Counted from the first letter of the stretch, positions 26,693 to 60,173 are shown. The stretch is 64,000 bases of DNA from Escherichia coli (GCF_013315695.1 NZ_CP054356.1), one strand, 5' to 3'. Numbers and translations: made by a program. Notes: generated by a model from the sequence alone, not told the origin.

Positions 26693-26775
26693 AATTTGAA
26701 AATCGCCGATGCAGGGAGTTCTCTCCTCCCCGCATCGACTGTCCATAGAATCCTTTGTGAGGAGGTTCCTATGTA
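26693..26775 (-). ncRNA. finP: FinP antisense RNA (approximate)
   Basis: Antisense to traJ leader/RBS; two stem-loops (e.g. CGATGCAGGGAG..CTCCCCGCATCG) and minus-strand U-tail (plus GAATTTGAAAATC). Confidence 0.6.
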
Positions 26776-27460
26776 TCCGATGGATCGTATTCAACAAAAA
26801 CATGCTCGTCAAATAGATCTGCTGGAAAATCTGACGGCAGTTATTCAGGATTATCCAAATCCAGCCTGTATCAGGGACGAAACTGGAAAATTTATTTTTT
26901 GCAATACGCTGTTTCATGAGTCATTTCTTACACAAGATCAAAGTGCTGAAAAATGGCTTCTGTCGCAGAGAGATTTTTATGAATTGATCTCTGTCACAGA
27001 GATGGAAGCATACAGGAATGAGCATACGCATCTTAATCTTGTAGAGGATGTTTTTATTCAGAACAGATTCTGGACAATATCTGTCCAGTCATTTCTTAAT
27101 GGACACAGAAATATTATTCTGTGGCAATTTTATGATGCTGCTCATGTTCGTCATAAAGACAGTTATAATCAAAAAACGATTGTCAGTGATGATATCAGAA
27201 ATATAATCAGAAGAATGAGTGATGATTCTTCTGTATCATCATATGTAAATGATGTATTTTACTTATATAGCACCGGAATCAGTCATAATGCTATAGCAAG
27301 AATATTAAACATATCCATCTCCACATCAAAGAAACACGCATCTCTGATATGCGACTACTTCTCTGTTTCTAATAAAGATGAGTTAATCATCTTACTCTAC
27401 AATAAAAAGTTTATTCATTATTTATACGAGAAGGCTATGTGTATCATAAATATGCGTTAA
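26771..27460 (+). CDS. traJ: Transfer operon activator TraJ
   Basis: ATG with RBS GAGGAGG; MYPMDRIQQKHARQIDLLENL..; track ORF extends upstream to 26690. Confidence 0.85.
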   Translation: MYPMDRIQQKHARQIDLLENLTAVIQDYPNPACIRDETGKFIFCNTLFHESFLTQDQSAEKWLLSQRDFYELISVTEMEAYRNEHTHLNLVEDVFIQNRFWTISVQSFLNGHRNIILWQFYDAAHVRHKDSYNQKTIVSDDIRNIIRRMSDDSSVSSYVNDVFYLYSTGISHNAIARILNISISTSKKHASLICDYFSVSNKDELIILLYNKKFIHYLYEKAMCIINMR

Positions 27461-27558
27461 TAAAGTGTTAATAAAATATAGACTTTCCGTCTATTTACCT
27501 TTTCTGATTATTCTGCAAACATAAGTGGTAACCAGAAGATAAACAGCGGGAGGTGTTA

Positions 27559-27954
27559 TTGAAAAGATTTGGTACACGTTCTGCAACAGGTAAGATGGTA
27601 AAACTAAAATTACCTGTAGATGTGGAAAGTCTATTAATTGAGGCAAGTAACAGAAGCGGAAGAAGTCGATCGTTTGAGGCAGTAATAAGACTTAAAGATC
27701 ATCTTCACCGCTATCCAAAGTTTAACAGGGCAGGAAATATCTATGGTAAGTCGCTGGTTAAGTATCTGACAATGCGTCTGGATGATGAAACTAACCAGCT
27801 ACTTATTGCAGCAAAAAATCGTAGTGGATGGTGTAAAACAGATGAGGCTGCAGACAGAGTTATTGATCATTTGATCAAGTTTCCTGATTTTTATAACTCG
27901 GAGATATTCAGGGAGGCAGATAAAGAGGAAGATATAACATTTAATACACTCTAG
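27559..27954 (+). CDS. traY: Relaxosome accessory protein TraY
   Basis: Ribbon-helix-helix protein (..FGTRSATGKMVKLKLPVDVESLL..); probable TTG start at 27559 after RBS GGGAGG (track: 27553). Confidence 0.85.
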   Translation: MKRFGTRSATGKMVKLKLPVDVESLLIEASNRSGRSRSFEAVIRLKDHLHRYPKFNRAGNIYGKSLVKYLTMRLDDETNQLLIAAKNRSGWCKTDEAADRVIDHLIKFPDFYNSEIFREADKEEDITFNTL

Positions 27955-27986
27955 TTTTATTCATTTATCCGAAATTGAGGTAACTT

Positions 27987-28346
27987 ATGAATACTGTTTT
28001 AAGTGTTCAGGGTGCTTCTGCGCCCGTCAAAAAGAAATCGTTTTTTTCTAAATTCACTCGTCTGAATATGCTTCGCCTGGTTCGTGCAGTGATCCCGGTT
28101 GCTGTTCTGATGATGTTGTTCCCTGAGTTAGCTATGGCTGCTGGTAAAGGCGACCTGATGGCTAAAGGTAACGATACGGTTAAGGCGACCTTCGGTAAGG
28201 ACTCCAGTATCGTTAAATGGGTTGTTCTGGCTGAGGTGCTGGTCGGTGCGGTCATGTACATGATGACCAAAAACGTCAAGTTCCTGGTCGGCTTTGCCAT
28301 CATCTCTGTATTTATTGCTGTGGGTATGAGCGTCGTTGGCCTCTGA
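27987..28346 (+). CDS. traA: F-pilin precursor TraA
   Basis: 119 aa propilin with long leader and hydrophobic mature pilin. Confidence 0.9.
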
Positions 28347-28360
28347 CAGGAAATAAAACG

Positions 28361-28672
28361 ATGTCGGGAGACGAGAATAAACTTAAGAAATATCGTTTCC
28401 CGGAAACACTGACCAACCAGAGCCGCTGGTTTGGCCTGCCACTGGATGAACTGATCCCCGCAGCAATCTGTGTTGGCTGGGGTATCACAACATCGAAATA
28501 TCTGTTCGGTATTGGTGCAGCGGTTCTGGTTTATTTCGGGATTAAAAAACTGAAAAAAGGGCGGGGCAGTTCCTGGTTACGTGACCTGATTTACTGGTAT
28601 ATGCCAACAGCCCTGCTGCGCGGTATTTTTCATAATGTTCCCGATTCGTGTTTCCGGCAGTGGATTAAATAG
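28361..28672 (+). CDS. traL: Pilus assembly protein TraL
   Basis: Size and order in tra operon. Confidence 0.85.
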
Positions 28673-28693
28673 AACTGATACCAGGATTGTTAT

Positions 28694-29260
28694 ATGGAAC
28701 ACGGTGCCCGTTTAAGTACCAGTCGTGTAATGGCCATCGCCTTTATATTTATGTCAGTGCTTATTGTTCTCAGCCTCTCTGTTAACGTCATTCAGGGGGT
28801 GAATAACTACCGCCTTCAGAATGAGCAACGCACTGCCGTGACGCCAATGGGATTTAATGTGCCCTTTGCCGTGTCACAGAACAGTGCCGATGCCTCTTAT
28901 TTGCAGCAGATGGCGCTGTCATTTATTGCCCTCCGTCTGAATGTCTCACCGGAAATCGTCGATGCCTCACATCAGGCGCTTCTGCAATATATCCGCCCGG
29001 GCGCACAGAACCAGATGAAAGTTATTCTGGCTGAAGAAGCGAAACTCATTAAAAAAGATAACGTGAATTCTGCTTTTTTCCAGACCAGTGTCCGTGTCTG
29101 GCCTCAGTATGGTCGTGTGGAAATCCGTGGAATTCGGAAAACATGGATTGGTAACTCCGAACCTTTTACTGATATCAAACATTACATCCTTATTCTGAAG
29201 CGGGAAAACGGGGTGACCTGGCTGGATAATTTCGGGGAAACAGACGATGAGAAAAAATAA
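28694..29260 (+). CDS. traE: Pilus assembly protein TraE
   Basis: Size and order. Confidence 0.85.
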
Positions 29261-29975
29261 TACGGCAATAATATTCGGCGGCCTGTTTTTTTCCTGCAGC
29301 GTGATGGCCGCAAACGGTACGCTGGCCCCCACTGTGGTGCCAATGGTGAACGGTGGTCAGGCCAGTATTGCCATCAGCAATACCAGCCCGAATCTGTTTA
29401 CCGTTCCCGGTGACCGGATTATCGCCGTGAACAGTCTGGATGGTGCCCTGACCAATAATGAGCAGACCGCCTCCGGCGGTGTGGTGGTGGCCACCGTCAA
29501 CAAAAAGCCCTTTACGTTCATTCTGGAAACAGAGCGTGGTCTGAACCTTTCCATTCAGGCTGTTCCCCGTGAAGGCGCGGGGCGTACCATTCAGCTGGTC
29601 AGTGACCTGCGCGGAACCGGAGAAGAAGCCGGAGCGTGGGAAACGTCCACGCCTTACGAATCCCTGCTTGTGACCATCAGCCAGGCTGTCCGTGGCGGAA
29701 AATTACCTGCAGGCTGGTATCAGGTTCCTGTGACAAAGGAAACCCTGCAGGCCCCGGCGGGGCTGTCTTCAGTGGCAGATTCCGTATGGACGGGGAATCA
29801 CCTGAAGATGGTCCGCTTTGCCGTGGAAAATAAAACGCTGTCTGCCCTGAATATCCGGGAAAGTGATTTCTGGCAGCCGGGAACCCGTGCCGTGATGTTC
29901 AGCCAGCCTGCCAGCCAGTTACTGGCAGGTGCGCGCATGGATGTGTATGTCATCCGTGACGGGGAGGGCAACTGA
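29247..29975 (+). CDS. traK: Type IV secretion secretin-like protein TraK
   Basis: Size and order; signal peptide. Confidence 0.85.
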
Positions 29976-31426
29976 TGGCCAGTATCAATACCATTGTGAA
30001 ACGCAAGCAGTACCTGTGGCTGGGGATTGTGGTTGTCGGTGCAGCCTCCGCGATTGGTGGGGTACTGTATCTGTCTGATGTGGACATGTCCGGTAACGGT
30101 GAGGCGGTGGCTGAACAGGAGCCTGTGCCGGATATGACAGGTGTGGTGGATACGACCTTTGATGACAAGGTGCGTCAGCATGCCACCACAGAGATGCAGG
30201 TGACGGCAGCGCAGATGCAGAAGCAGTATGAGGAAATCCGTCGTGAACTGGATGTCCTGAACAAACAGCGCGGTGATGACCAGCGTCGTATTGAAAAGCT
30301 GGGACAGGACAATGCCGCCCTGGCAGAGCAGGTAAAAGCCCTGGGTGCTAATCCCGTCACGGCGACCGGTGAGCCTGTACCTCAGATGCCTGCCTCACCG
30401 CCCGGGCCGGAAGGCGAACCACAGCCAGGAAACACCCCCGTATCCTTCCCGCCGCAGGGCAGCGTTGCTGTTCCACCGCCGACGGCGTTTTATCCCGGGA
30501 ATGGTGTCACGCCACCACCACAGGTGACGTACCAGTCTGTGCCGGTGCCTAACCGGATACAGCGTAAGGTGTTTACCCGTAATGAGGGAAAACAGGGACC
30601 ATCGCTGCCGTACATTCCGTCAGGAAGTTTTGCGAAAGCCATGCTGATTGAAGGGGCGGATGCCAATGCCTCAGTCACCGGTAATGAATCCACGGTGCCG
30701 ATGCAGTTGCGTATCACCGGCCTGGTGGAAATGCCGAACAGCAAGACGTATGACGCAACGGGATGTTTTGTGGGGCTGGAAGCCTGGGGGGATGTGTCCA
30801 GTGAACGTGCCATTGTACGCACCCGCAATATCAGTTGCCTGAAGGACGGCAAAACTATTGATATGCCGATTAAGGGGCATGTCAGCTTCCGGGGTAAAAA
30901 CGGTATCAAGGGCGAAGTGGTGATGCGTAACGGCAAAATCCTCGGCTGGGCATGGGGCGCGGGATTTGTTGACGGTATCGGTCAGGGAATGGAGCGCGCC
31001 TCCCAACCGGCTGTCGGGCTGGGTGCCACAGCCGCTTACGGGGCTGGTGATGTCCTGAAAATGGGTATCGGTGGCGGCGCATCGAAAGCCGCACAGACGC
31101 TCAGTGACTACTACATCAAACGTGCCGAACAGTATCACCCGGTGATACCGATTGGTGCGGGCAACGAAGTGACCGTGGTGTTCCAGGACGGCTTCCAGCT
31201 GAAAACCGTGGAGGAAATGGCGCTGGAGCAGTCACAGAGTACAGCGGAAGAGGGTAACCCGGAAAGCCCGGTGCCGAATCCTCCCTCGGCAGAAAGCCAC
31301 CTGAACGGTTTTAACACCGACCAGATGCTGAAACAGCTGGGCAATCTGAATCCGCAGCAGTTTATGTCCGGAGACAAGAACCCGCTGGGCGGGGATGCCG
31401 GCAAGGAGGGCGGAAATGGCGGGTGA
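29975..31426 (+). CDS. traB: Type IV secretion protein TraB (VirB10-like)
   Basis: 483 aa with Pro-rich region and VirB10-like C-terminus; order. Confidence 0.85.
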   Translation: MASINTIVKRKQYLWLGIVVVGAASAIGGVLYLSDVDMSGNGEAVAEQEPVPDMTGVVDTTFDDKVRQHATTEMQVTAAQMQKQYEEIRRELDVLNKQRGDDQRRIEKLGQDNAALAEQVKALGANPVTATGEPVPQMPASPPGPEGEPQPGNTPVSFPPQGSVAVPPPTAFYPGNGVTPPPQVTYQSVPVPNRIQRKVFTRNEGKQGPSLPYIPSGSFAKAMLIEGADANASVTGNESTVPMQLRITGLVEMPNSKTYDATGCFVGLEAWGDVSSERAIVRTRNISCLKDGKTIDMPIKGHVSFRGKNGIKGEVVMRNGKILGWAWGAGFVDGIGQGMERASQPAVGLGATAAYGAGDVLKMGIGGGASKAAQTLSDYYIKRAEQYHPVIPIGAGNEVTVVFQDGFQLKTVEEMALEQSQSTAEEGNPESPVPNPPSAESHLNGFNTDQMLKQLGNLNPQQFMSGDKNPLGGDAGKEGGNGG

Positions 31427-31982
31427 TGCACTGACATTCCGTGTGGCGTTTGTCGTTCGCTGGCTGCTGTGGGTCGTCAGGTTTGTGGTTATCTGGCCGC
31501 TGGCCACAATGGCCCTGATGGCTCTGTTTGTTTTATGGAAGGACAACACCACGCCGGGGAAATTACTGGTTAAGGAGATTAACTTCGTAAGACAAACAGC
31601 ACCTGCCGGACAGTTCCCGGTCAGTGAATGCTGGTTTTCTTCCTCTGATTCTTCAGGCAGATCAGAAATACAGGATATCTGCCATTACCGCGCGGCTGAT
31701 GCTGCAGATTATGTCAGGGAGACTGACCGGTCACTGATGCAACTGGTCACCGCATTCTGGGCAACGCTGGCACTGATGTATATGTCGTTTGCGGCAGGCA
31801 CCGGGAAATATCCGATGTGGCCCGGAAAAATGAAATGTGTCCGGGTGGGAACCGCAGATGAACATCTGAAGGAAGTTTATACGGAAGACGCTTCCCTGCC
31901 GGAAAAAATCAGGAAATGCCCTGTTTATTTCCATGATGACAGAACAAACAGAAGCAACGGAGATAAAAATGAACATGCGTAA
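31416..31982 (+). CDS. traP: Conjugal transfer protein TraP
   Basis: Order after traB; MAGDALTFRV.. start inferred (track 31395). Confidence 0.7.
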   Translation: MAGDALTFRVAFVVRWLLWVVRFVVIWPLATMALMALFVLWKDNTTPGKLLVKEINFVRQTAPAGQFPVSECWFSSSDSSGRSEIQDICHYRAADAADYVRETDRSLMQLVTAFWATLALMYMSFAAGTGKYPMWPGKMKCVRVGTADEHLKEVYTEDASLPEKIRKCPVYFHDDRTNRSNGDKNEHA

Positions 31983-32935: not shown

Positions 32936-33157
32936 GTGAGTGATGAAGCCGATGAAGCATATTCAGTGACAGAACAACTGACCATGACAGGAATAAACCG
33001 GATACGCCAGAAAATAAATGTTCATGGTATTCCTGTTTATCTCTGTGAAGCATGCGGAAATCCTATTCCGGAAGCCCGGAGGAAAATATTTCCCGGTGTG
33101 ACGTTGTGCGTTGAATGTCAGGCGTATCAGGAAAGGCAGAGGAAACACTATGCATAA
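32936..33157 (+). CDS. traR: TraR (DksA-like zinc-finger protein)
   Basis: 73 aa with CEACGNPIPEARRK..CVEC four-Cys motif. Confidence 0.9.
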   Translation: MSDEADEAYSVTEQLTMTGINRIRQKINVHGIPVYLCEACGNPIPEARRKIFPGVTLCVECQAYQERQRKHYA

Positions 33158-33165
33158 ATCAGAAA

Positions 33166-33627
33166 ATGAAAAAAATAGATTTTATTCTGGATGAGCATGA
33201 GCAGATATTCAGAAAACAGGGTTCTTTGTGTATGGCACTGGGTAAGGGCTTTTTAGTTATAGCTATTCTTTGTGGTGTTGCCACATTCTGTGTTTCTGGC
33301 CTGTATCTGAAATCCCTGTGCCTGTCCGTTGCCTGCTGTTGTGGGGTATTCAGTCGTATTTTTAATTATTACAGCGTACCGGAGGAATCACGCATGGTAC
33401 TCAGTCGTCAGGAATTACTCCGGCTTATGCGTCTGACTGAAGACGTACCAGATGTGAGACAGGAACTGCTTAACCGTTTGTTGTCCGGTAAAAAACTGAC
33501 TGGTCGGGATGAACAGGATATCCGGCGTCTCTGGCAGGAGAAAGTGGATGCAATGCAGGAGTCTGCCACCCGTCAGCGTGAACAGGATACTATTCGGAAG
33601 TTTACTGAAGGGAATAAATCCGAATGA
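33166..33627 (+). CDS. Hypothetical membrane protein (accessory ORF between traR and traC)
   Basis: ATG 33166 (MKKIDFIL..), TM segment, charged C-terminus; AT-rich relative to flanking tra genes. Confidence 0.5.
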   Translation: MKKIDFILDEHEQIFRKQGSLCMALGKGFLVIAILCGVATFCVSGLYLKSLCLSVACCCGVFSRIFNYYSVPEESRMVLSRQELLRLMRLTEDVPDVRQELLNRLLSGKKLTGRDEQDIRRLWQEKVDAMQESATRQREQDTIRKFTEGNKSE

Positions 33628-39392: not shown

Positions 39393-40039
39393 GAAATATC
39401 ATGAACCGGAAAATATTTGCACTTTTTGCTCTGACAGCAGGGATGCATCTTGCTGTTCATGCTTCAGAAAATGTGAACACACCTGAAAACCGCCAGTTCC
39501 TGAAGCAGCAGGAAAATTTAAGCAGACAACTGCGAGAGAAACCTGACCATCAGCTGAAAGCCTGGGCGGAGAAACAGGTGCTGGAAAACCCCCTTCAGCG
39601 TTCAGATAACCATTTTCTGGATGAGCTGGTTCGTAAACAGCAGGCTTCGCAGGACGGGAAACCCCGGCAGGGTGCCCTGTATTTTGTGTCGTTTTCCATT
39701 CCCGAAGAGGGGCTGAAACGGATGCTGGGCGAAACCCGGCACTACGGTATTCCGGCCACACTGCGGGGCATGGTGAACAATGACCTGAAGACCACCGCTG
39801 AAGCCGTGCTGTCCCTGGTGAAAGACGGCGCGACTGATGGTGTTCAGATCGACCCGACGCTGTTTTCACAGTACGGCATTCGCAGTGTACCGGCACTGGT
39901 GGTGTTCTGCAGTCAGGGATACGACATCATCCGGGGAAACCTGCGGGTCGGCCTGGCGCTGGAGAAAGTGGCCGCCACGGGTGACTGCCGGCAGGTGGCT
40001 CATGATTTACTGGCAGGGAAAGGAGATTCCGGGAAATGA
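39389..40039 (+). CDS. trbC: Pilus assembly protein TrbC
   Basis: Size, signal peptide, order. Confidence 0.85.
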   Translation: MRNIMNRKIFALFALTAGMHLAVHASENVNTPENRQFLKQQENLSRQLREKPDHQLKAWAEKQVLENPLQRSDNHFLDELVRKQQASQDGKPRQGALYFVSFSIPEEGLKRMLGETRHYGIPATLRGMVNNDLKTTAEAVLSLVKDGATDGVQIDPTLFSQYGIRSVPALVVFCSQGYDIIRGNLRVGLALEKVAATGDCRQVAHDLLAGKGDSGK

Positions 40040-41886
40040 AACGTATTTTACCTCTGATACTGGCTCTGGTTGCCGGCATGGCACAGGCTGACAGCAACAG
40101 TGATTACCGGGCCGGTTCTGATTTTGCCCGTCAGATTCAGGGGCAGGGTACAGGCAGTATTCAGGGCTTTAAGCCACAGGAGAGTATCCCCAGCTATAAC
40201 GCGAATCCGGACGAGACAAAATATTACGGTGGCGTGACTGCCGGCGGGGATGGCGGCCTGAAAAATGACGGCACCACGGAATGGGCGACCGGTGAAACCG
40301 GAAAAACCATCACAGAGTCCTTCATGAACAAGCCGAAAGACATTCTGTCACCGGATGCACCGTTCATTCAGACCGGCAGGGATGTGGTGAACCGGGCTGA
40401 CAGCATTGTGGGAAACACCGGGCAGCAGTGCAGTGCGCAGCAGATAAACCGCAGTGAGTTCACAAACTATACCTGTGAGCGGGACACGATGGTGGAGGAG
40501 TACTGCACACGGACTGCCAGTATCACCGGGGACTGGAAATACACGGATGAATATCGTGAAGTGACGATACCGCACTCACAGTTCCGGTTCAGTATGAACG
40601 GGCTGAAACTGGTGTTCAGTGTCACGGCTCCGGTAACCGGTACAGTGGAAAGTGCATCATTGTCTGTATACGCCGCTTTTTTCTTCCTGAACTCCCGTTA
40701 TACCTTCATGAATACAACCTTTAATGTCGGCCTGGCAAACGGGCAGTCGGATACTTACCCCCTGTCCGGGGCGACAGGTTTGCAGGTGACACAGGGGCAG
40801 GTTCTGACCGGTAGTGGCTGTACTGCTAACGGTAATTGCCTCCCGCACGGGAATGGTGACAGGAAAGTCTATGAATCGCTTGTCAGTGGTGCTTCCACCT
40901 TTACGCTGAAACTCAGGATGAAGGTCCGTGATAAAGAATGGGTTCCCCGGGTGGAGTGGGTGGAGAGTTGTCCGTTTAATAAAGCGGATGGCGTGCTGAC
41001 AGGCACTGAGTGTTCAGAGCCGGGTGGTACGAAAACCGGAGTGATGGAAGGTAAACCCTGGAACATCACACAGGCATGCTGGGCATACCGGGATAAATAT
41101 GTCACTCAGTCCGCAGATAACGGCACCTGTCAGAAATATGTCGATAATCCGGCCTGTACGCTGGCCTCACGTCAGTGCGCGTTTTATTCCGATGAGGGAA
41201 CCTGTCTGCATGAGTACGCCACGTACTCCTGCGAGTCCAGAACATCAGGAAAAGTGATGGTCTGTGGTGGTGATGTCTTCTGCCTTGACGGTGAATGCGA
41301 TAAGGCACAGAGCGGAAAAAACAGTGATTTTGGTGAAGCAGTATCACAGCTGGCTGCGCTTGCCGCCGCAGGTAAGGATGTTGCCGCCCTGAATGGTGTG
41401 GATGTCAGGGCTTTCACGGGTGAGGCGAAATTCTGCCGTAAGGCCGCAGCCGGCTTCAGTAACTGCTGTAAGGATGGCGGCTGGGGTCAGGATGTGGGGC
41501 TGGCGAAGTGCAACAGTGAAGAAAAGGCGCTGGGAAAGGCAAAGGACAACAAACTGACGGTGAGTGTGGGCGAGTTCTGCTCCCGGAAAGTGCTGGGTGT
41601 CTGTCTGCAGAAAAAGCGCAGCTACTGCCAGTTTGATTCGAAGCTGGCGCAGATAGTCCAGCAGCAGGGGCGTAACGGGCAGTTGCGTATCAGTTTTGGC
41701 AGTGCGAAGCATCCTGACTGTCGGGGGATTACGGTTGATGAGCTGCAGAAAATTCAGTTCGACAGACTGGATTTCACTAACTTCTACGAAGACCTGATGA
41801 ATAACCAGAAAATCCCGGACAGTGGCGTTCTGACGCAGAAAGTGAAAGAGCAGATTGCTGACCAGCTGAAACAGGCAGGACAGTAA
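40036..41886 (+). CDS. traN: Mating-pair stabilisation protein TraN
   Basis: 616 aa Cys-rich outer-membrane protein; order. Confidence 0.9.
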   Translation: MKRILPLILALVAGMAQADSNSDYRAGSDFARQIQGQGTGSIQGFKPQESIPSYNANPDETKYYGGVTAGGDGGLKNDGTTEWATGETGKTITESFMNKPKDILSPDAPFIQTGRDVVNRADSIVGNTGQQCSAQQINRSEFTNYTCERDTMVEEYCTRTASITGDWKYTDEYREVTIPHSQFRFSMNGLKLVFSVTAPVTGTVESASLSVYAAFFFLNSRYTFMNTTFNVGLANGQSDTYPLSGATGLQVTQGQVLTGSGCTANGNCLPHGNGDRKVYESLVSGASTFTLKLRMKVRDKEWVPRVEWVESCPFNKADGVLTGTECSEPGGTKTGVMEGKPWNITQACWAYRDKYVTQSADNGTCQKYVDNPACTLASRQCAFYSDEGTCLHEYATYSCESRTSGKVMVCGGDVFCLDGECDKAQSGKNSDFGEAVSQLAALAAAGKDVAALNGVDVRAFTGEAKFCRKAAAGFSNCCKDGGWGQDVGLAKCNSEEKALGKAKDNKLTVSVGEFCSRKVLGVCLQKKRSYCQFDSKLAQIVQQQGRNGQLRISFGSAKHPDCRGITVDELQKIQFDRLDFTNFYEDLMNNQKIPDSGVLTQKVKEQIADQLKQAGQ

Positions 41887-46209: not shown

Positions 46210-49028
46210 ATGAAGTCTATGTGATTGCCGGTGGTGAGTGGTTAAGCAATAACCTGAACGCCATTGCCGCCTTTATGGGGACCCGGACGTGGGATTCCAT
46301 CGAAAAAATTGCGCTCACATTGTCTGTTCTCGCGGTGGCCGTGATGTGGGTACAGCGGCACAACGTGATGGATTTGCTGGGCTGGGTGGCCGTGTTTGTG
46401 CTTATCAGCCTGCTGGTTAATGTCCGTACATCGGTGCAGATTATTGATAACAGTGACCTGGTCAAAGTTCACCGGGTGGATAATGTGCCGGTCGGACTGG
46501 CGATGCCACTTTCACTGACGACCCGTATCGGGCATGCAATGGTGGCCAGTTACGAGATGATATTCACCCAGCCGGACAGTGTCACCTACAGCAAAACGGG
46601 GATGCTGTTCGGCGCAGAACTGGTATCAAAAAGCACCGACTTTTTGTCCCGCAATCCGGAAATCGCCAATCTTTTTCAGGATTATGTGCAGAACTGTGTG
46701 ATGGGGGATATTTACCTGAACCACAAATACACGCTGGAGGAGCTGATGGCCTCCGCTGATCCCTACACGCTGATTTTTTCCCGCCCCAGTCCGCTGCGGG
46801 GCGTTTACGACAGCAATAATAATTTCGTGACCTGTAAGGACGCGTCGGTTTCGCTGAAAGACAAGCTGAATCTGGACACACAGAGTGGCGGAAAAACCTG
46901 GCATTATTATGCCCAGCAGTTATTTGGTGGTCGCCCTGATCCGAACCTGTTGTTCAGTACGCTGATTGGCGACAGTTACAGTTACTTCTATGGCTCAAGT
47001 AAATCAGCCAGCCAGATCATCCGCCAGAATGTCACCATCAATGCGCTGAAGGAGGGGATCACCAGTTATGCCGCACGTAATGGTGATTCGGCCAGCCTGG
47101 TGAATCTGGCCACCACATCATCGATGGAGAAGCAACGTCTGGCACATGTCTCCATCGGTCATGTGGCGATGCGGACACTGCCCATGACGCAGACCATCCT
47201 GACGGGGATCGCCATCGGTATTTTCCCGCTCCTGGTACTGGCGGCTGTCTTCAACAAACTGACGCTGTCCGTCCTGAAAGGCTATGTGTTTGCCCTGATG
47301 TGGTTGCAGTCATGGCCAATGTTGTACGCCATTCTGAACAGTGCCATGACATTTTATGCGAAGCAGAACGGTGCACCGGTGGTGCTCTCAGAAATTTCAC
47401 AGATACAGCTGAAATACTCCGATCTGGCTTCCACTGCCGGGTATCTTTCCATGATGATCCCGCCATTATCCTGGATGATGGTCAGGGGACTCGGGGCCGG
47501 ATTTTCCAGTGTGTACAGCCATTTCGCTTCCTCTGCTATCAGCCCGACCGCCAGTGCGGCAGGCAGTGTGGTTGACGGTAATTACTCCTACGGCAACATG
47601 CAGACGGAAAACGTGAACGGCTTCAGCTGGAGCACCAACAGCACCACGTCGTTTGGTCAGATGATGTACCAGACCGGCAGTGGCGCAACTGCCACACAGA
47701 CCCGTGACGGTAATATGGTGATGGATGCGAGCGGGGCGATGTCCCGGTTACCGGTTGGTATCAATGCAACGCGTCAGATTGCAGCGGCACAACAGGAAAT
47801 GGCCCGGGAGGCGTCGAACAGAGCAGAAAGCGCCCTGCATGGGTTCAGCAGCAGTATTGCCAGTGCCTGGAACTCGCTCAGCCAGTTTGGTTCTAACCGG
47901 GGGAGCAGTGATTCTGTCACAGGTGGTGCTGACAGCACGATGAGCGCACAGGACTCCATGATGGCCAGCCGTATGCGCAGTGCAGTGGAAAGCTATGCGA
48001 AGGCGCATAATATCAGTAATGAGCAGGCGACTCAGGAACTGGCATCCAGAAGTACGAGAACTTCTGCCGGGATGTATGGAGATGCTCATGCTGAATGGGG
48101 GGTTAAACCTAAAATTCTTGGTGTTGGTGGAGGATTAGGCGTTAGAGGTGGTGGTCGGGCTGGTATTGATTGGGAAGATAATGATGCGCATACGGCAAGT
48201 AGTAATACTCAGTCGAGCCATAATGCTCGTCATGATATCGATGCCAGAGCTACACAAGACTTTAAAGAGGCCAGCGATTACTTTACCAGTCGCAAGGTCA
48301 GTGAGTCCGGCAGCCATACTGACAATAATGCTGATTCCCGTGTGGATCAGTTGTCTGCAGCCCTGAATTCAGCGAAGCAGAGTTACGACCAGTACACGAC
48401 GAATATGACCCGCAGCCATGAATATGCTGAAATGGCATCCCGTACTGAAAGCATGAGTGGGCAGATGAGTGAAGACCTGTCGCAACAGTTTGCACAGTAT
48501 GTAATGAAACACGCGCCACAGGATGCAGAAGCTATTCTGACAAACACCAGTTCACCGGAGATTGCAGAACGTCGTCGGGCGATGGCCTGGTCTTTTGTGC
48601 AGGAACAGGTACAGCCTGGTGTTGATAATGCCTGGCGGGAATCCCGTGGTGATATTGGTAAAGGAATGGAGAGCGTACCTTCGGGTGGTGGCAGTCAGGA
48701 TATTATTGCTGACCATCAGGGACATCAGGCCATTATTGAGCAAAGAACGCAGGACAGTAATATCCGTAATGATGTAAAACATCAGGTTGATAATATGGTC
48801 ACAGAATATAAAGGGAATATAGGTGATACTCAGAACAGCGTACGTGGCGAGGAAAATATTGTAAGAGGACAGTATTCTGAACTGCAGAATCACCATAAAA
48901 CAGAGGCATTATCTCAGAATAATAAATATAATGAAGAAAAGTCGGCTCAGGAAAGAATGCCCGGGGCTGACAGTCCACAGGAACTTATGAAAAGGGCAAA
49001 GGAATATCAGGATAAGTATAAGCAATAA
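46206..49028 (+). CDS. traG: Mating-pair stabilisation / entry-exclusion protein TraG
   Basis: 940 aa, N-terminal multi-TM domain and large periplasmic domain. Confidence 0.92.
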   Translation: MNEVYVIAGGEWLSNNLNAIAAFMGTRTWDSIEKIALTLSVLAVAVMWVQRHNVMDLLGWVAVFVLISLLVNVRTSVQIIDNSDLVKVHRVDNVPVGLAMPLSLTTRIGHAMVASYEMIFTQPDSVTYSKTGMLFGAELVSKSTDFLSRNPEIANLFQDYVQNCVMGDIYLNHKYTLEELMASADPYTLIFSRPSPLRGVYDSNNNFVTCKDASVSLKDKLNLDTQSGGKTWHYYAQQLFGGRPDPNLLFSTLIGDSYSYFYGSSKSASQIIRQNVTINALKEGITSYAARNGDSASLVNLATTSSMEKQRLAHVSIGHVAMRTLPMTQTILTGIAIGIFPLLVLAAVFNKLTLSVLKGYVFALMWLQSWPMLYAILNSAMTFYAKQNGAPVVLSEISQIQLKYSDLASTAGYLSMMIPPLSWMMVRGLGAGFSSVYSHFASSAISPTASAAGSVVDGNYSYGNMQTENVNGFSWSTNSTTSFGQMMYQTGSGATATQTRDGNMVMDASGAMSRLPVGINATRQIAAAQQEMAREASNRAESALHGFSSSIASAWNSLSQFGSNRGSSDSVTGGADSTMSAQDSMMASRMRSAVESYAKAHNISNEQATQELASRSTRTSAGMYGDAHAEWGVKPKILGVGGGLGVRGGGRAGIDWEDNDAHTASSNTQSSHNARHDIDARATQDFKEASDYFTSRKVSESGSHTDNNADSRVDQLSAALNSAKQSYDQYTTNMTRSHEYAEMASRTESMSGQMSEDLSQQFAQYVMKHAPQDAEAILTNTSSPEIAERRRAMAWSFVQEQVQPGVDNAWRESRGDIGKGMESVPSGGGSQDIIADHQGHQAIIEQRTQDSNIRNDVKHQVDNMVTEYKGNIGDTQNSVRGEENIVRGQYSELQNHHKTEALSQNNKYNEEKSAQERMPGADSPQELMKRAKEYQDKYKQ

Positions 49029-51299: not shown

Positions 51300-53525
51300 A
51301 TGAGTTTTAACGCAAAGGATATGACCCAGGGCGGTCAGATTGCGTCCATGCGTATCCGCATGTTCAGCCAGATCGCCAATATCATGCTTTACTGCCTGTT
51401 TATTTTTTTCTGGATACTCGTTGGTCTGATTTTATGGGTAAAAATAAGCTGGCAGACGTTTGTGAACGGCTGTATTTACTGGTGGTGTACCACGCTGGAA
51501 GGCATGCGGGATTTAATCAAGTCCCAGCCAGTATATGAGATCCAGTATTACGGCAAAACCTTCCGGATGAACGCTGCCCAGGTACTGCATGATAAATATA
51601 TGATCTGGTGCGGAGAGCAGCTATGGTCCGCATTCGTTCTGGCCACAGTTGTGGCACTGGTTATTTGCCTGATCACCTTCTTTGTTGTCTCCTGGATTCT
51701 GGGGCGTCAGGGTAAACAACAGAGCGAAAATGAAGTCACAGGTGGTCGTCAGCTGACAGACAATCCGAAAGACGTTGCCCGGATGCTGAAAAAAGACGGC
51801 AAGGACTCCGATATCCGGATTGGCGACCTGCCGATTATCCGGGATTCCGAAATCCAGAACTTCTGTCTGCACGGCACGGTCGGGGCCGGTAAGTCGGAGG
51901 TTATCCGTCGTCTGGCCAACTATGCCCGTCAGCGCGGTGATATGGTGGTGATTTATGACCGTTCAGGGGAATTTGTTAAAAGTTACTATGATCCCTCCAT
52001 CGATAAAATCCTGAATCCGCTGGATGCCCGCTGTGCCGCATGGGATTTGTGGAAGGAGTGCCTGACACAGCCGGATTTTGATAATACCGCAAATACTCTG
52101 ATCCCTATGGGTACAAAAGAGGACCCGTTCTGGCAGGGTTCAGGACGTACCATTTTTGCGGAAGCGGCGTACCTGATGCGTAATGACCCCAACCGCAGCT
52201 ACAGCAAACTGGTGGACACACTGCTTTCCATCAAAATTGAAAAACTGCGTACCTTCCTGCGTAATTCACCGGCAGCCAACCTGGTGGAAGAGAAAATTGA
52301 GAAAACGGCGATTTCCATCCGTGCTGTGCTGACCAACTACGTGAAAGCCATCCGTTACCTGCAGGGGATTGAGCATAACGGTGATCCCTTCACCATCCGT
52401 GACTGGATGCGTGGTGTCCGGGAAGATCAGAAAAACGGCTGGCTGTTTATTTCGTCGAACGCCGACACCCATGCCTCCCTGAAGCCTGTGATCTCCATGT
52501 GGCTGTCCATTGCCATTCGTGGTCTGCTGGCAATGGGAGAAAACCGTAACCGTCGTGTGTGGTTTTTCTGTGATGAGTTACCCACGTTACACAAACTGCC
52601 GGATCTGGTGGAGATCCTGCCGGAAGCCCGTAAGTTCGGTGGCTGTTATGTGTTTGGTATCCAGTCCTATGCCCAGCTGGAAGATATCTACGGTGAGAAA
52701 GCGGCGGCCACGCTGTTTGACGTCATGAACACCCGTGCTTTTTTCCGTTCCCCGAGCCATAAGATTGCAGAGTTCGCTGCCGGTGAGATTGGTGAGAAAG
52801 AGCACCTGAAAGCCAGCGAGCAGTATTCCTACGGTGCTGACCCGGTACGTGACGGGGTATCGACCGGTAAGGATATGGAGCGTCAGACGCTGGTCAGTTA
52901 TTCCGACATTCAGTCTCTGCCGGATCTGACCTGCTATGTCACTCTGCCCGGACCGTATCCGGCAGTCAAACTCTCTCTGAAATATCAGGCACGACCGAAG
53001 GTCGCTCCGGAGTTTATTCCGCGTGACATCAACCCGGAAATGGAGAACCGTCTGAGTGCCGTACTTGCCGCAAGGGAAGCAGAAGGTCGTCAGATGGCCA
53101 GCCTCTTTGAACCGGAGGTTGCCTCCGGAGAAGATGTGACTCAGGCTGAACAGCCACAACAGCCACAACAGCCACAACAGCCACAACAGCCACAACAGCC
53201 ACAACAGCCACAACAGCCACAACAGCCACAACAGCCACAACAGCCAGTGTCTTCTGTCATCAATGATAAGAAGTCAGATGCAGGTGTGAGTGTTCCGGCA
53301 GGGGGGATCGAGCAGGAGCTGAAAATGAAACCGGAAGAAGAGATGGAACAGCAACTGCCACCCGGGATCAGTGAATCCGGTGAAGTGGTGGATATGGCCG
53401 CTTATGAGGCATGGCAACAGGAAAATCATCCGGACATCCAGCAGCATATGCAGCGTCGTGAAGAGGTGAACATTAATGTGCACCGGGAGCGCGGGGAGGA
53501 TGTTGAGCCGGGAGATGATTTCTGA
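51300..53525 (+). CDS. traD: Type IV coupling protein TraD
   Basis: 741 aa; Walker A GTVGAGKS; C-terminal QPQ repeats. Confidence 0.95.
53151..53246 (+). repeat. Tandem 9-bp repeat (CAGCCACAA)x10 encoding (QPQ)n in TraD C-terminal tail
   Basis: Ten perfect tandem units visible at 53151-53240. Confidence 0.9.
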
Positions 53526-56500
53526 TGTTGAGTTTCAGCGTTGTTAAATCGGCAGGCAGTGCCGGAAACTATTACACCGACAAGGATAATTACTATGTGC
53601 TGGGCAGCATGGGAGAACGCTGGGCTGGTCAGGGGGCTGAACAGCTTGGGCTGCAGGGCAGCGTCGATAAGGATGTTTTTACCCGTCTTCTGGAGGGCAG
53701 GCTGCCGGACGGGGCGGATTTAAGCCGCATGCAGGATGGCAGTAATAAGCATCGTCCCGGCTACGACCTGACCTTCTCCGCCCCCAAAAGTGTCTCCATG
53801 ATGGCCATGCTCGGGGGGGATAAACGTCTTATTGATGCACATAACCAGGCCGTGGATTTTGCTGTCCGTCAGGTGGAGGCGCTGGCTTCCACACGGGTGA
53901 TGACGGACGGACAGTCAGAAACGGTGCTGACCGGTAATCTGGTGATGGCACTGTTTAACCATGACACCAGTCGCGATCAGGACCCACAGTTACACACGCA
54001 TGTAGTGGTGGCTAATGTCACGCAGCATAACGGCGAGTGGAAGACACTGAGCAGTGACAAAGTGGGGAAAACCGGATTTTCCGAGAACGTGCTAGCGAAC
54101 CGGATTGCGTTCGGGAAAATATATCAGAGTGAGTTACGTCAGCGCGTTGAGGCGCTGGGTTATGAAACCGAAGTGGTCGGTAAGCACGGTATGTGGGAGA
54201 TGCCGGGCGTACCGGTGGAGGCCTTTTCCAGTCGTTCACAGGCTATCAGGGAGGCCGTCGGTGAAGACGCCTCGCTGAAATCCCGGGATGTGGCGGCACT
54301 GGATACGCGAAAATCCAAACAGCACGTCGATCCGGAAATCAGAATGGCTGAATGGATGCAGACGCTGAAGGAAACCGGGTTCGACATCCGGGCATATCGT
54401 GACGCGGCGGATCAGCGTGCGGAGATCCGCACGCAGGCGCCCGGGCCTGCTTCACAGGACGGGCCGGATGTGCAGCAGGCGGTGACACAGGCGATTGCCG
54501 GATTAAGTGAACGAAAAGTGCAGTTCACGTATACGGACGTGCTGGCCAGGACGGTCGGCATACTGCCGCCGGAAAATGGTGTGATTGAACGGGCACGCGC
54601 CGGTATCGATGAGGCCATCAGCCGTGAGCAGCTTATCCCCCTCGACCGTGAGAAGGGGCTGTTCACATCAGGAATTCATGTGCTCGATGAGCTGTCCGTC
54701 CGGGCACTCAGTCGTGACATCATGAAACAGAACCGGGTGACCGTACATCCGGAGAAAAGTGTCCCCCGGACGGCTGGTTACAGCGATGCGGTCAGTGTTC
54801 TGGCACAGGACCGTCCGTCGCTGGCCATTGTGTCCGGGCAGGGCGGTGCAGCCGGGCAGCGTGAGCGGGTGGCTGAACTGGTCATGATGGCCCGGGAGCA
54901 GGGGCGGGAGGTGCAGATTATCGCTGCTGACCGTCGCTCGCAGATGAACCTGAAGCAGGATGAACGGCTGTCCGGTGAGCTGATAACCGGACGTCGTCAG
55001 CTGCAGGAGGGCATGGTCTTCACGCCGGGCAGTACTGTTATCGTCGACCAGGGCGAAAAACTCTCCCTGAAAGAGACGTTAACCCTGCTGGACGGTGCCG
55101 CACGTCATAACGTACAGGTCCTGATAACCGACAGCGGGCAGCGAACCGGTACAGGCAGTGCGCTGATGGCCATGAAGGATACCGGGGTGAACACGTATCG
55201 CTGGCAGGGCGGAGAACAGCGACCGGCAACCATCATCAGTGAACCGGACCGGAATGTCCGCTATGACCGGCTGGCCGGAGATTTTGCGGCCAGCGTGAAA
55301 GCCGGAGAAGAGAGCGTGGCACAGGTCAGCGGGGTACGGGAACAGGCCATACTGACACAGGCCATTCGCAGTGAGCTGAAAACACAGGGCGTGCTCGGAC
55401 ACCCGGAGGTGACCATGACCGCCCTGTCACCGGTCTGGCTGGACAGCCGGAGCCGTTATCTGCGGGATATGTACCGACCGGGGATGGTGATGGAGCAGTG
55501 GAACCCGGAGACACGCAGTCATGACCGCTATGTTATCGACCGGGTGACGGCGCAGAGTCACAGCCTGACCCTGCGGGATGCGCAGGGCGAAACGCAGGTG
55601 GTGCGTATTTCCTCCCTGGACAGCAGCTGGTCGCTGTTCCGGCCGGAAAAAATGCCGGTGGCAGACGGCGAGCGACTGAGGGTGACAGGGAAAATTCCCG
55701 GACTCCGCGTCTCCGGCGGTGACCGCCTGCAGGTGGCATCCGTCAGTGAAGATGCGATGACGGTTGTTGTGCCGGGGCGGGCTGAACCGGCCACCCTGCC
55801 TGTGGCTGATTCACCGTTCACGGCACTGAAGCTGGAGAACGGCTGGGTGGAAACGCCCGGGCATTCCGTCAGTGACAGTGCGACGGTGTTTGCCTCCGTC
55901 ACACAGATGGCAATGGACAACGCCACCCTGAACGGTCTGGCCCGCAGCGGTCGTGATGTCCGGCTGTATTCCTCACTGGATGAAACCCGTACTGCGGAAA
56001 AACTTGCCCGCCATCCCTCCTTTACGGTGGTTTCTGAGCAGATAAAGGCGCGGGCCGGTGAGACATCGCTGGAAACCGCTATCAGTCTGCAGAAAACCGG
56101 GCTGCACACGCCGGCACAGCAGGCCATTCATCTGGCCCTTCCTGTGCTGGAAAGTAAAAACCTGGCCTTCAGCATGGTGGACCTGCTGACAGAGGCGAAG
56201 TCGTTTGCTGCAGAAGGAACCGGTTTTACTGAACTGGGAGGGGAAATCAATGCGCAGATAAAACGCGGTGACTTACTGTATGTGGATGTGGCAAAAGGCT
56301 ATGGCACAGGCCTGCTGGTTTCCCGTGCGTCGTATGAGGCAGAAAAAAGTATTCTTCGCCATATTCTCGAAGGTAAGGAGGCGGTCACGCCGCTGATGGA
56401 GAGAGTACCCGGCGAACTCATGGAGACGTTAACGTCGGGACAGCGTGCCGCCACCCGTATGATACTGGAAACGTCCGACCGTTTCACGGTGGTACAGGGT

Positions 56501-58795
56501 TATGCCGGTGTGGGTAAGACCACACAGTTCCGGGCGGTGATGTCAGCCGTGAACATGCTGCCGGCGAGTGAGCGTCCCCGAGTTGTGGGGCTGGGGCCCA
56601 CGCACCGTGCGGTCGGTGAGATGCGCAGCGCCGGCGTGGATGCACAGACGCTGGCGTCCTTTCTGCATGACACGCAGCTGCAGCAGCGCAGCGGAGAAAC
56701 GCCGGATTTCAGCAACACGCTGTTCCTGCTCGATGAGAGCTCAATGGTGGGCAATACCGACATGGCACGGGCATACGCCCTGATTGCGGCCGGTGGCGGT
56801 CGTGCCGTGGCCAGTGGTGACACGGACCAGCTGCAGGCCATCGCGCCCGGTCAGCCTTTCCGTCTCCAGCAGACGCGCAGTGCTGCCGATGTGGTCATCA
56901 TGAAGGAGATTGTGCGTCAGACGCCGGAACTGCGGGAGGCGGTATACAGCCTGATTAACCGGGATGTGGAAAGGGCACTGTCCGGGCTTGAGAGTGTGAA
57001 ACCGTCTCAGGTTCCCCGTCAGGAGGGCGCATGGGCACCGGAGCACTCCGTGACGGAGTTCAGTCACAGCCAGGAAGCGAAACTGGCAGAAGCGCAGCAG
57101 AAGGCGATGCTGAAAGGTGAGACTTTTCCGGATGTCCCCATGACACTGTATGAAGCCATTGTCCGCGACTATACCGGCAGGACACCGGAAGCACGGGAGC
57201 AGACGCTGATTGTCACGCACCTGAATGAGGACCGGCGCGTACTGAACAGCATGATTCATGATGCACGGGAAAAGGCCGGTGAGCTGGGGAAAGAGCAGGT
57301 CATGGTGCCTGTCCTGAACACAGCGAATATACGTGACGGGGAGCTGCGTCGTCTCTCCACCTGGGAGAATAACCCGGATGCCCTTGCCCTGGTGGATAGT
57401 GTGTATCACCGGATTGCCGGTATCAGCAAGGATGACGGGCTGATAACCCTGGAGGATGCGGAAGGTAACACGCGGCTGATTTCGCCCCGGGAGGCGGTGG
57501 CTGAAGGTGTCACACTGTACACCCCGGACAAAATCCGGGTGGGGACCGGCGACCGGATGCGCTTCACGAAGAGTGACCGGGAGCGCGGTTATGTGGCCAA
57601 CAGCGTCTGGACGGTGACAGCGGTTTCCGGTGACAGTGTCACGCTGTCAGACGGACAGCAGACCCGGGTGATTCGCCCCGGCCAGGAGCGGGCAGAGCAA
57701 CATATTGACCTGGCTTATGCCATCACCGCCCACGGTGCGCAGGGGGCGAGTGAAACCTTTGCCATCGCGCTTGAAGGCACGGAAGGTAACCGGAAACTGA
57801 TGGCCGGCTTTGAGTCAGCCTACGTGGCCCTGTCGCGTATGAAGCAGCATGTGCAGGTGTACACCGATAACCGTCAGGGCTGGACGGATGCCATTAACAA
57901 TGCCGTACAGAAAGGAACTGCCCACGATGTGCTGGAGCCGAAACCGGACCGGGAGGTCATGAATGCGCAGCGGCTGTTCAGTACGGCACGGGAACTGCGG
58001 GACGTGGCGGCAGGCCGTGCCGTTCTCCGTCAGGCAGGGCTGGCCGGGGGAGACAGCCCTGCACGGTTTATTGCACCGGGACGTAAATATCCGCAGCCGT
58101 ATGTGGCACTGCCGGCGTTTGACCGTAACGGCAAGTCAGCTGGTATCTGGCTGAACCCACTGACCACGGATGACGGAAACGGGCTGCGGGGATTCAGTGG
58201 TGAAGGACGGGTGAAAGGCAGCGGGGATGCGCAGTTCGTGGCCCTGCAGGGCAGCCGTAACGGAGAGAGCCTGCTGGCTGATAATATGCAGGATGGCGTC
58301 CGGATTGCCCGTGATAATCCTGACAGCGGTGTGGTGGTGAGAATTGCCGGTGAAGGTCGTCCGTGGAATCCCGGTGCCATCACCGGTGGCCGCGTGTGGG
58401 GGGATATCCCGGATAACAGCGTCCAGCCGGGGGCCGGAAATGGCGAACCGGTCACGGCAGAGGTACTGGCACAGCGGCAGGCTGAAGAGGCCATCCGCCG
58501 TGAAACGGAACGCCGCGCAGATGAAATTGTCAGGAAAATGGCAGAGAACAAACCTGACCTGCCGGATGGCAAAACAGAGCTGGCTGTCAGGGATATTGCC
58601 GGACAGGAGCGTGACCGGTCTGCCATATCTGAACGGGAAACCGCACTGCCGGAGAGTGTGCTGCGTGAATCACAACGGGAGCGGGAAGCGGTCCGGGAGG
58701 TTGCCCGGGAAAATCTGCTGCAGGAGCGTCTGCAGCAGATGGAGCGGGATATGGTTCGTGACCTGCAGAAAGAGAAAACCCTGGGCGGAGACTGA
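53525..58795 (+). CDS. traI: Relaxase/helicase TraI
   Basis: 1756 aa; N-terminal relaxase (..SAGSAGNYYTDKDNYYVLGS.. HTHVVVANV), helicase Walker A GYAGVGKT; matches recalled F TraI. Confidence 0.97.
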   Translation: MLSFSVVKSAGSAGNYYTDKDNYYVLGSMGERWAGQGAEQLGLQGSVDKDVFTRLLEGRLPDGADLSRMQDGSNKHRPGYDLTFSAPKSVSMMAMLGGDKRLIDAHNQAVDFAVRQVEALASTRVMTDGQSETVLTGNLVMALFNHDTSRDQDPQLHTHVVVANVTQHNGEWKTLSSDKVGKTGFSENVLANRIAFGKIYQSELRQRVEALGYETEVVGKHGMWEMPGVPVEAFSSRSQAIREAVGEDASLKSRDVAALDTRKSKQHVDPEIRMAEWMQTLKETGFDIRAYRDAADQRAEIRTQAPGPASQDGPDVQQAVTQAIAGLSERKVQFTYTDVLARTVGILPPENGVIERARAGIDEAISREQLIPLDREKGLFTSGIHVLDELSVRALSRDIMKQNRVTVHPEKSVPRTAGYSDAVSVLAQDRPSLAIVSGQGGAAGQRERVAELVMMAREQGREVQIIAADRRSQMNLKQDERLSGELITGRRQLQEGMVFTPGSTVIVDQGEKLSLKETLTLLDGAARHNVQVLITDSGQRTGTGSALMAMKDTGVNTYRWQGGEQRPATIISEPDRNVRYDRLAGDFAASVKAGEESVAQVSGVREQAILTQAIRSELKTQGVLGHPEVTMTALSPVWLDSRSRYLRDMYRPGMVMEQWNPETRSHDRYVIDRVTAQSHSLTLRDAQGETQVVRISSLDSSWSLFRPEKMPVADGERLRVTGKIPGLRVSGGDRLQVASVSEDAMTVVVPGRAEPATLPVADSPFTALKLENGWVETPGHSVSDSATVFASVTQMAMDNATLNGLARSGRDVRLYSSLDETRTAEKLARHPSFTVVSEQIKARAGETSLETAISLQKTGLHTPAQQAIHLALPVLESKNLAFSMVDLLTEAKSFAAEGTGFTELGGEINAQIKRGDLLYVDVAKGYGTGLLVSRASYEAEKSILRHILEGKEAVTPLMERVPGELMETLTSGQRAATRMILETSDRFTVVQGYAGVGKTTQFRAVMSAVNMLPASERPRVVGLGPTHRAVGEMRSAGVDAQTLASFLHDTQLQQRSGETPDFSNTLFLLDESSMVGNTDMARAYALIAAGGGRAVASGDTDQLQAIAPGQPFRLQQTRSAADVVIMKEIVRQTPELREAVYSLINRDVERALSGLESVKPSQVPRQEGAWAPEHSVTEFSHSQEAKLAEAQQKAMLKGETFPDVPMTLYEAIVRDYTGRTPEAREQTLIVTHLNEDRRVLNSMIHDAREKAGELGKEQVMVPVLNTANIRDGELRRLSTWENNPDALALVDSVYHRIAGISKDDGLITLEDAEGNTRLISPREAVAEGVTLYTPDKIRVGTGDRMRFTKSDRERGYVANSVWTVTAVSGDSVTLSDGQQTRVIRPGQERAEQHIDLAYAITAHGAQGASETFAIALEGTEGNRKLMAGFESAYVALSRMKQHVQVYTDNRQGWTDAINNAVQKGTAHDVLEPKPDREVMNAQRLFSTARELRDVAAGRAVLRQAGLAGGDSPARFIAPGRKYPQPYVALPAFDRNGKSAGIWLNPLTTDDGNGLRGFSGEGRVKGSGDAQFVALQGSRNGESLLADNMQDGVRIARDNPDSGVVVRIAGEGRPWNPGAITGGRVWGDIPDNSVQPGAGNGEPVTAEVLAQRQAEEAIRRETERRADEIVRKMAENKPDLPDGKTELAVRDIAGQERDRSAISERETALPESVLRESQREREAVREVARENLLQERLQQMERDMVRDLQKEKTLGGD

Positions 58796-58814
58796 TACAG
58801 GAAGACAAACACTG

Positions 58815-59561
58815 ATGACAACGGATAACACGAACACGACACGTAACGATTCACTGGCTGCACGGACCGATACCTGGTTGCAGTCGTTTCTGGTCTGGTC
58901 ACCCGGACAGCGGGATATCATCAAAACGGTGGCGCTGGTGCTGATGGTACTGGACCACATCAATCTGATATTCCAGCTGAAGCAGGAATGGATGTTTCTG
59001 GCCGGGCGAGGAGCCTTTCCGCTGTTTGCCCTGGTGTGGGGGCTGAATCTGTCCCGTCATGCGCATATCCGGCAACCGGCCATTAACCGGCTGTGGGGAT
59101 GGGGAATTATTGCCCAGTTCGCATATTATCTGGCCGGCTTTCCCTGGTATGAGGGGAATATCCTGTTTGCCTTTGCAGTGGCGGCACAGGTGCTGACGTG
59201 GTGTGAAACGCGCAGTGGGTGGCGTACAGCAGCGGCCATTCTTCTGATGGCCCTGTGGGGGCCTTTGTCCGGCACCAGTTACGGCATTGCCGGGCTGCTG
59301 ATGCTGGCGGTCAGTTACCGACTGTACCGGGCGGAAGACAGAGCGGAACGTCTGGCGCTGGTCGCCTGCCTGCTGGCTGTTATTCCGGCGCTTAACCTTG
59401 CCACCAGTGATGCAGCGGCGGTGGCTGGTCTTGTGATGACGGTGCTGACCGTTGGTCTGGTGTCCTGTGCAGGAAAATCATTACCCCGTTTCTGGCCCGG
59501 GGATTTTTTCCCGGTATTCTACGCCTGTCATCTGGCTGTGCTGGGCGTTCTGGCGCTGTGA
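58815..59561 (+). CDS. traX: Pilin N-acetylase TraX
   Basis: ATG 58815 (MTTDNTNTTRNDSL..), multi-TM protein; track ORF begins upstream inside traI. Confidence 0.85.
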   Translation: MTTDNTNTTRNDSLAARTDTWLQSFLVWSPGQRDIIKTVALVLMVLDHINLIFQLKQEWMFLAGRGAFPLFALVWGLNLSRHAHIRQPAINRLWGWGIIAQFAYYLAGFPWYEGNILFAFAVAAQVLTWCETRSGWRTAAAILLMALWGPLSGTSYGIAGLLMLAVSYRLYRAEDRAERLALVACLLAVIPALNLATSDAAAVAGLVMTVLTVGLVSCAGKSLPRFWPGDFFPVFYACHLAVLGVLAL

Positions 59562-59615
59562 CGGGTGTGGTATCTTTGACCGTAACAGGATGATTCGTCA
59601 GAGGCAGAACACAGC

Positions 59616-60173
59616 ATGACAGAGCAGAAGCGACCGGTACTGACACTGAAGCGGAAAACGGAAGGGGAGACGCCTGTCCGCAGGCGGAAAACCATCATCA
59701 ATGTCACCACGCCACCAAAGTGGAAGGTGAAAAAGCAGAAGCTGGCCGAGAAAGCAGCCCGGGAAGCGGAGCTGGCGGCAAAAAAAGCGCAGGCCAGACA
59801 GGCGCTGTCCATTTATCTGACGCTGCCCTCGCTGGATGAGGCGGTGAACACTCTGAAACCCTGGTGGCCGGGATTGTTTGACGGTAACACGCCCAGGCTT
59901 CTTGCCTGTGGTATCCGGGAGGTTTTACTGGATGAGGTGTTTCAGCGGAATATCCCGCTCTCTCATAAAAAACTCAGCCGGGCGCTGAAAGCTATCACCC
60001 GTTCGGAAAGTTATCTGTGTGCAATGAAAGCCGGCGCCTGCCGCTATGATACGGAAGGCTATGTGACAGAACATATCACACAGGAAGAAGAACAGTATGC
60101 GCAGGCGCGCCTGGAAAAGGTGCGCAGACAGAACCGGATCAAGGATGAGCTGCGGGCGATCCTGGCGGAATAA
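59616..60173 (+). CDS. finO: Fertility inhibition RNA chaperone FinO (apparently intact)
   Basis: 185 aa basic protein [59 protein letters not shown].. Confidence 0.92.

Follow-up and report, generated by a model that had tools for sequence, protein, structure and literature searches.

The 64,000-nucleotide (nt) stretch of Escherichia coli DNA analysed here (GCF_013315695.1, NZ_CP054356.1; hereafter the window) most probably carries a complete and functional FinOP fertility-inhibition circuit of the kind known from classical F-like plasmids. All the parts of this circuit, from the RNA chaperone gene finO and the antisense RNA gene finP to the leader and coding sequence of the transfer activator gene traJ, are present at full length, correctly placed and conserved. 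They lie in or at the border of 26693-60173, a span that corresponds to the transfer region of a plasmid of the F-like IncFII type (MOBF12 group A). This region extends from about 6 nt outside the 3' end of FinP to the stop codon of finO and includes the whole tra operon, and FinOP parts are found only at its two ends. A preliminary description of this DNA had held that finO is a full-length open reading frame (ORF) of 185 amino acids (aa), that the finP/traJ leader stem-loops are present and that transfer is probably repressed. The first two statements are borne out by the matches described below, and the third is supported at the sequence level, as FinO, FinP, the traJ leader, TraJ, the PY promoter and the tra genes are all intact.

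finO (59616-60173, + strand) is an uninterrupted ORF that begins with ATG. Its product matches positions 1-185 of the 186 positions of the NCBIfam FinO model (NF010317, 347 bits) and contains both the FinO_N (PF12602) and the ProQ/FinO (PF04352) domains of Pfam. Residues 33-183 of R6-5 FinO (PDB 1dvo) are aligned with it without a gap (E 4.3e-86), although about 20 substitutions, including R121S, separate the two proteins, and the window protein has 185 aa instead of 186. R100 FinO likewise has 186 aa, and its C-terminus reads AVLDEQ as compared with AILAE in the window. With respect to the RNA-contact residues K46, K81, R121, K125, R165 and K176, and W36, which is associated with chaperone activity, all are kept except R121, which is replaced by serine. 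R170 is kept as well, and so are S116, K118, K119, R122, K125, R129, Y133 and R143, none of which varies among 120 FinO cluster representatives and R100. The dN/dS ratio (nonsynonymous to synonymous substitution rates) of finO against R100 is 0.13, indicating purifying selection. Plasmid records with a fully identical copy of the gene number at least 60; FinO is the annotation in nearly all of them, and no copy is labelled a pseudogene. In the distal part of the tra operon, finO directly follows traX, which ends at 59561, after a gap of 54 nt. A gap of the same length is found in F, where finO is disrupted, as the preliminary description had also stated: in NC_002483, the F record, the finO frame has reached residue 132 where the record ends, and the record opens with an IS3 transposase gene, in agreement with the reported interruption of F finO by IS3 (PMC5102898).

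At the other end of the region, Rfam models of both FinP and the traJ leader are matched over their full lengths. FinP (RF00107) is matched at 26777-26699 on the - strand (96.8 bits, E 2.3e-18, model positions 1-76 of 76), giving a 79-nt antisense RNA, and traJ_5 (RF00243) at 26666-26776 on the + strand (121.3 bits, E 2e-20, model positions 1-109 of 109). Scores of this size are not to be expected by chance. FinP consists of a 5' GAUA, stem-loop I (SLI, 26773-26744), a GACA spacer (26743-26740), stem-loop II (SLII, 26739-26705) and a 3' tail, GAUUUU (26704-26699). Its minimum free energy fold has the two canonical hairpins, with an energy of -37.8 kcal/mol, close to those of F (-37.6) and R100 (-37.5). 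The 5' untranslated leader of traJ mRNA, of about 105 nt (26666-26770, + strand), includes the complementary hairpins SLIIc (26705-26739, loop 26719-26725) and SLIc (26744-26773), the latter of which contains the traJ Shine-Dalgarno sequence AGGAGG (26760-26765) and the ATG codon (26771). The SLI loop is of the F type, UUGUGA, as compared with UUGAGA in R100. Throughout the traM-traJ intergenic region, 177 of 186 positions are identical to those of F, and the differences are mostly found in the SLII loop.

The promoters of both transcripts can be predicted from consensus scans. A candidate finP promoter, TTGACG-17-TACGAT (26812-26784, - strand), lies within the beginning of traJ and 7 nt upstream of where FinP starts, and a GATC sequence overlaps its -10 hexamer. 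The surrounding stretch (26770-26830) is identical to F at all 61 positions, including the GATC, through which Dam control of finP transcription has been cited (PMC8136791). A candidate traJ promoter, PJ (GTGACA-17-TATATT, 26633-26661, + strand), agrees with the consensus at 10 of 12 positions and lies 5 nt ahead of the traJ_5 match.

The targets of the circuit are also in place. TraJ (229 aa; 26771-27460, + strand) is matched over its full length by an NCBIfam equivalog model (NF010275, 535.9 bits, positions 1-229 of 229) and is 98.7% identical to F TraJ, from which it differs by three substitutions (C70Y, Y216H and T228M). TraM is matched over 127 of 127 positions of its family model and is 97.6% identical to that of F. 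The PY promoter region and traY together occupy 27461-27954 on the + strand (traY, 27553-27954); the intergenic PY region is identical to F at 91 of 92 positions, and TraY, which fills 131 of 131 positions of the NCBIfam TraY model, is identical to that of F. In the tra operon from traA to traX (27987-59561, + strand), which is the regulated output of the circuit, every gene is of full length: by tblastn, all the F and R100 proteins from TraA to TraX were matched at full length in the window.

The mechanism by which FinOP represses transfer has been described (PMC8136791; PMC5102898). In the present plasmid, FinP would be transcribed from the promoter within the first part of traJ, with full complementarity to the leader of traJ and to the ribosome-binding site in it. 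FinO would bind SLII and the 3' tail of FinP, shield the RNA from RNase E and accelerate its pairing with traJ mRNA. As a result of this protection and faster pairing, little TraJ would be made, PY would be mostly off, and a small share of the cells would become donors. Plasmids with intact FinOP, such as R1, R100 and pSLT, are transferred 100-1000 times less than F (PMC5102898), and intact FinOP leaves only about 1-10 of every 1000 donor cells unrepressed (PMC4010749). The region is best read as encoding a working FinOP brake that would keep transfer low and stochastic, the operation and the strength of the repression being predictions. New transconjugants would be expected to be transiently derepressed; no paper on this behaviour was found in a literature search. 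Intact FinOP means low, bursty transfer as compared with the constitutive transfer of F, and the state of FinOP predicts how fast F-like plasmids, which often carry resistance or virulence genes, spread.

Intact FinOP is the usual state of F-like plasmids, F itself being the exception. In a survey of 256 MOBF12 plasmids, all members of group A except F were finO-positive (PMC5102898). Finding an intact circuit here is correct and already known, and identical finO and finP sequences have been deposited and annotated.

Intactness of the finO ORF and the finP stem-loops is necessary for repression but not sufficient. In the IncFII plasmid pHNSHP24, in which finO and finP are intact and transfer is normally repressed, the substitution A51G of an evolved mutant shrinks the SLIIc loop from 6 to 4 nt and raises transfer about 1600-fold (PMC10470590). 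Since one altered base in this loop was enough for such derepression while the genes were intact, the phenotype is not readable from the sequence, and it is for this reason that the FinOP parts of the window were searched for hidden defects. Along with the ORF and the stem-loops, the size of the loop, the promoter and the residues by which FinO contacts RNA deserve checking, given that the change of one base in the SLII loop can derepress transfer more than 1000-fold (PMC10470590); beyond such correct annotation, the present case is of little importance.

Besides the pHNSHP24 precedent, two variants in the window weigh against a fully working brake. The first is the serine at position 121 of FinO (codon 59976-59978), where R6-5 FinO has arginine. 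Arg121 and Lys125 gave the strongest crosslinks to FinP SLII in F/R6-5 FinO (PMC3105414), so that one of the two strongest-crosslinking positions carries Ser in the window protein. In an alignment of PDB sequences, Ser121 is placed opposite Arg75 of RocC and Arg58 of ProQ. In RocC, the R75D substitution weakens binding by a factor of more than 100, and repression is lost (PMC9674577), and the R58A substitution of ProQ strongly reduces RNA interaction (PMC7192607). The counterpart of ProQ Arg80, which is the arginine of the FinO sequence GACRYD, is conserved in the window. The second variant is a minority T-to-C change in the SLII stem at 26731, which produces a G·U pair in FinP SLII (-26.5 as compared with -27.2 kcal/mol) and an A·C mismatch in traJ SLIIc, weakening the latter more clearly (-18.5 as compared with -23.2 kcal/mol).

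These two variants are the basis of the likelier rival explanation, in which FinOP is structurally intact but weakened by R121S, the G·U/A·C stem variant or both, through poorer FinO-FinP binding or FinP-traJ pairing, leading to partial derepression and making the plasmid a mild 'superspreader'. The strong effect that a small change in SLIIc can have, as in pHNSHP24, speaks for it, as does the linkage of the two variants: C26731 in finP is found in 88 plasmid records, the finO allele with S121, matched exactly, in 84, and 44 records are shared among the first 60 listed for each allele. Such linkage indicates that the pair marks one plasmid lineage. Many records of this lineage are IncFII plasmids of 67-75 kb from human E. 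coli. No published transfer data were found in a literature search for this lineage or for pHK01-like plasmids.

On the other hand, residue 121 is naturally variable. Among the 120 FinO cluster representatives, the window protein and R100 FinO, arginine occurs at this position 73 times, isoleucine 26 times, serine 16 times, cysteine twice, and methionine and leucine once each, whereas the neighbouring R122 is invariant. The cluster with S121 (P0003) has 614 member sequences. Moreover, FinO of the Salmonella virulence plasmid pSLT (NC_003277), in which finO likewise directly follows traX, has I121 with R122 kept; FinP is its main ligand in vivo (PMC8136791), and pSLT is naturally repressed (PMC5102898). 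pSLT differs from the window plasmid in its backbone and in its more divergent FinO (about 75-78% identity, as judged from Salmonella FinO clusters). From this distribution, FinO proteins appear able to do without Arg121, and we see S121 as an established natural allele rather than a sporadic lesion. The substitution in the window FinO is probably tolerated, because position 121 varies naturally and pSLT FinO has isoleucine there. R121S was accordingly rejected as strong evidence of a hidden loss of FinO function.

The stem variant is also unlikely to be a defect in itself. The same G·U state in FinP and A·C state in traJ are native to R100, which is repressed by FinOP, and the change at 26731 was rejected as a lesion on this ground. 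In pHNSHP24, a more stable SLIIc accompanied higher traJ expression (PMC10470590), so derepression of transfer is not the expected outcome of a weaker SLIIc. The loop of the A51G mutant has 4 nt, in contrast to that of the window, which is open and has 7 nt, in the 6-7 nt range of a kissing loop, each nucleotide being unpaired with a probability of at least 0.98 in both FinP and traJ RNA. Taken together, the tests of R121S, the SLII loop and the stem variant gave no sign of derepression at the level of sequence, and a weakened FinOP is considered improbable.

The SLII loop itself differs completely from those of the two reference plasmids. On the traJ strand, it reads UUCUCUC (GAGAGAA in FinP) in the window, ACGUGAA in F and AGCGAC in R100, and apart from this loop the leader is nearly identical to that of F base for base. 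The possibility that a non-F loop is a derepressing mutation was rejected, as the loop is a common natural allele and keeps its seven open nucleotides. It is found in several hundred plasmid records, with 88 exact matches over 61 nt and 666 matches with one or two mismatches; two records sampled from the latter group both carry the loop. One sampled carrier (L003) has a TraJ whose accession is identical to that of F. We take the loop to be perhaps the classical 'type II' finP allele of ColB2/ColB4. FinP and traJ mRNA are read from the two strands of one DNA segment, which makes their complementarity automatic, and the loop sequence would affect only cross-talk with other F-like plasmids. Full cross-repression of the window plasmid by F FinP is unlikely, because the SLII loop sequences differ completely.

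A related proposal concerns the origin of the S121/G·U pair, two minority variants on a mosaic F/R100 backbone that might have been selected together, retuning how strongly transfer is repressed. If so, FinOP of this lineage would be naturally 'leaky', combined with an F-type traJ module whose SLII loop has a non-F specificity, but we regard this as a rather remote speculation. The last explanation, that FinOP is intact but irrelevant because transfer is blocked otherwise, for example by a missense defect affecting oriT or one of the essential tra genes, is highly improbable: nothing specific speaks for it beyond the fact that ORF integrity alone is compatible with missense defects, while all the tra proteins are of full length and mostly 99-100% identical to those of R100, the oriT region upstream of traM is identical to that of F at 394 of 401 positions, and near-identical plasmids are mostly typed as conjugative in PLSDB.

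A working FinOP brake, which remains the preferred reading, is placed on a transfer region that combines features of F and R100 and consists of three parts. The first, comprising traM, traJ and traY (26201-27954), is of the F type, with 98-100% identity at the amino acid level. From about 27835 onward, the genes through traX (27987-59561) are of the R100 type, mostly with 99-100% identity (95-100% for the structural genes from traA to traX). Consequently, the window resembles F in its TraJ, TraM, TraY, PY region, finP promoter and SLI loop, and differs from F in its whole finO, its SLII loop together with one stem difference, and its R100-type genes from traA onward. With R100 (NR1, NC_002134), a naturally repressed plasmid, it shares an intact finO and the stem position, while TraJ is only about 25% identical to that of R100, R100 TraY is a short form of 75 aa, and both the SLI and SLII loops are different.

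The third part of the mosaic is finO itself. FinO is 89% identical to that of R100, and the synonymous divergence (dS) from R100 is 0.52 for finO as compared with 0.04 for the adjacent traX. Such a jump indicates a recombination breakpoint between traX and finO and a derivation of finO from a different lineage. The R100 gene orf286, which encodes an alpha/beta hydrolase and lies between traX and finO in that plasmid, is absent from the window. No paper on the effect of orf286 on finO expression was found in a literature search. Downstream of finO, a regulator of the ANR family (60325-60528) is 53% identical and a thermonuclease-family protein (61255-61731) is 84% identical to the corresponding R100 proteins. 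The divergence of these two genes supports a block, from finO onward, of a lineage other than that of the tra genes.

As for the wider context of the plasmid, CopA RNA, a mark of the IncFII replicon, is matched by Rfam at 63826-63916. Thousands of plasmids from Escherichia, Klebsiella, Salmonella and Shigella carry similar DNA, as do 3,650 of 5,426 complete E. coli genomes. The best match to the window in the plasmid and complete-genome collections is 99.4% identical over 25 kb.

Some features of the tra operon are distinct from those of the reference plasmids. TraN (616 aa, 40036-41886) is just 72% identical to F TraN, whereas its neighbours are 92-100% identical in the same comparison. The variable tip of TraN sets recipient specificity. 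A single ORF of 170 aa (33115-33627) corresponds to two adjacent paralogous hypothetical genes of R100, with 97.6% identity to the first and 69.7% to the second. Between traD and traI, the F record (NC_002483) has a toxin-antitoxin pair of the vapBC type on the opposite strand (29967-30592), and an mvpA homologue takes this position in pSLT. traD and traI abut in the window as in R100, the end of traD and the start of traI both falling at 53525.

Several other small RNA families are matched in the window. Four antisense families of Rfam that were defined on pHK01 are found, all on the - strand: AS-traI (56374-56450), AS-traG (46925-47010), AS-pc01 (15161-15262) and AS-pc02 (60951-61093). Their scores are at or just above the gathering scores, and the match to AS-pc02 is partial. 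Two matches to the sok antitoxin RNA of hok/sok-type systems (RF01794) are found at 22509-22685 and 62862-63017, with 88.9 and 93.1 bits, respectively; one of them is located in the leading region and the other near the replicon.

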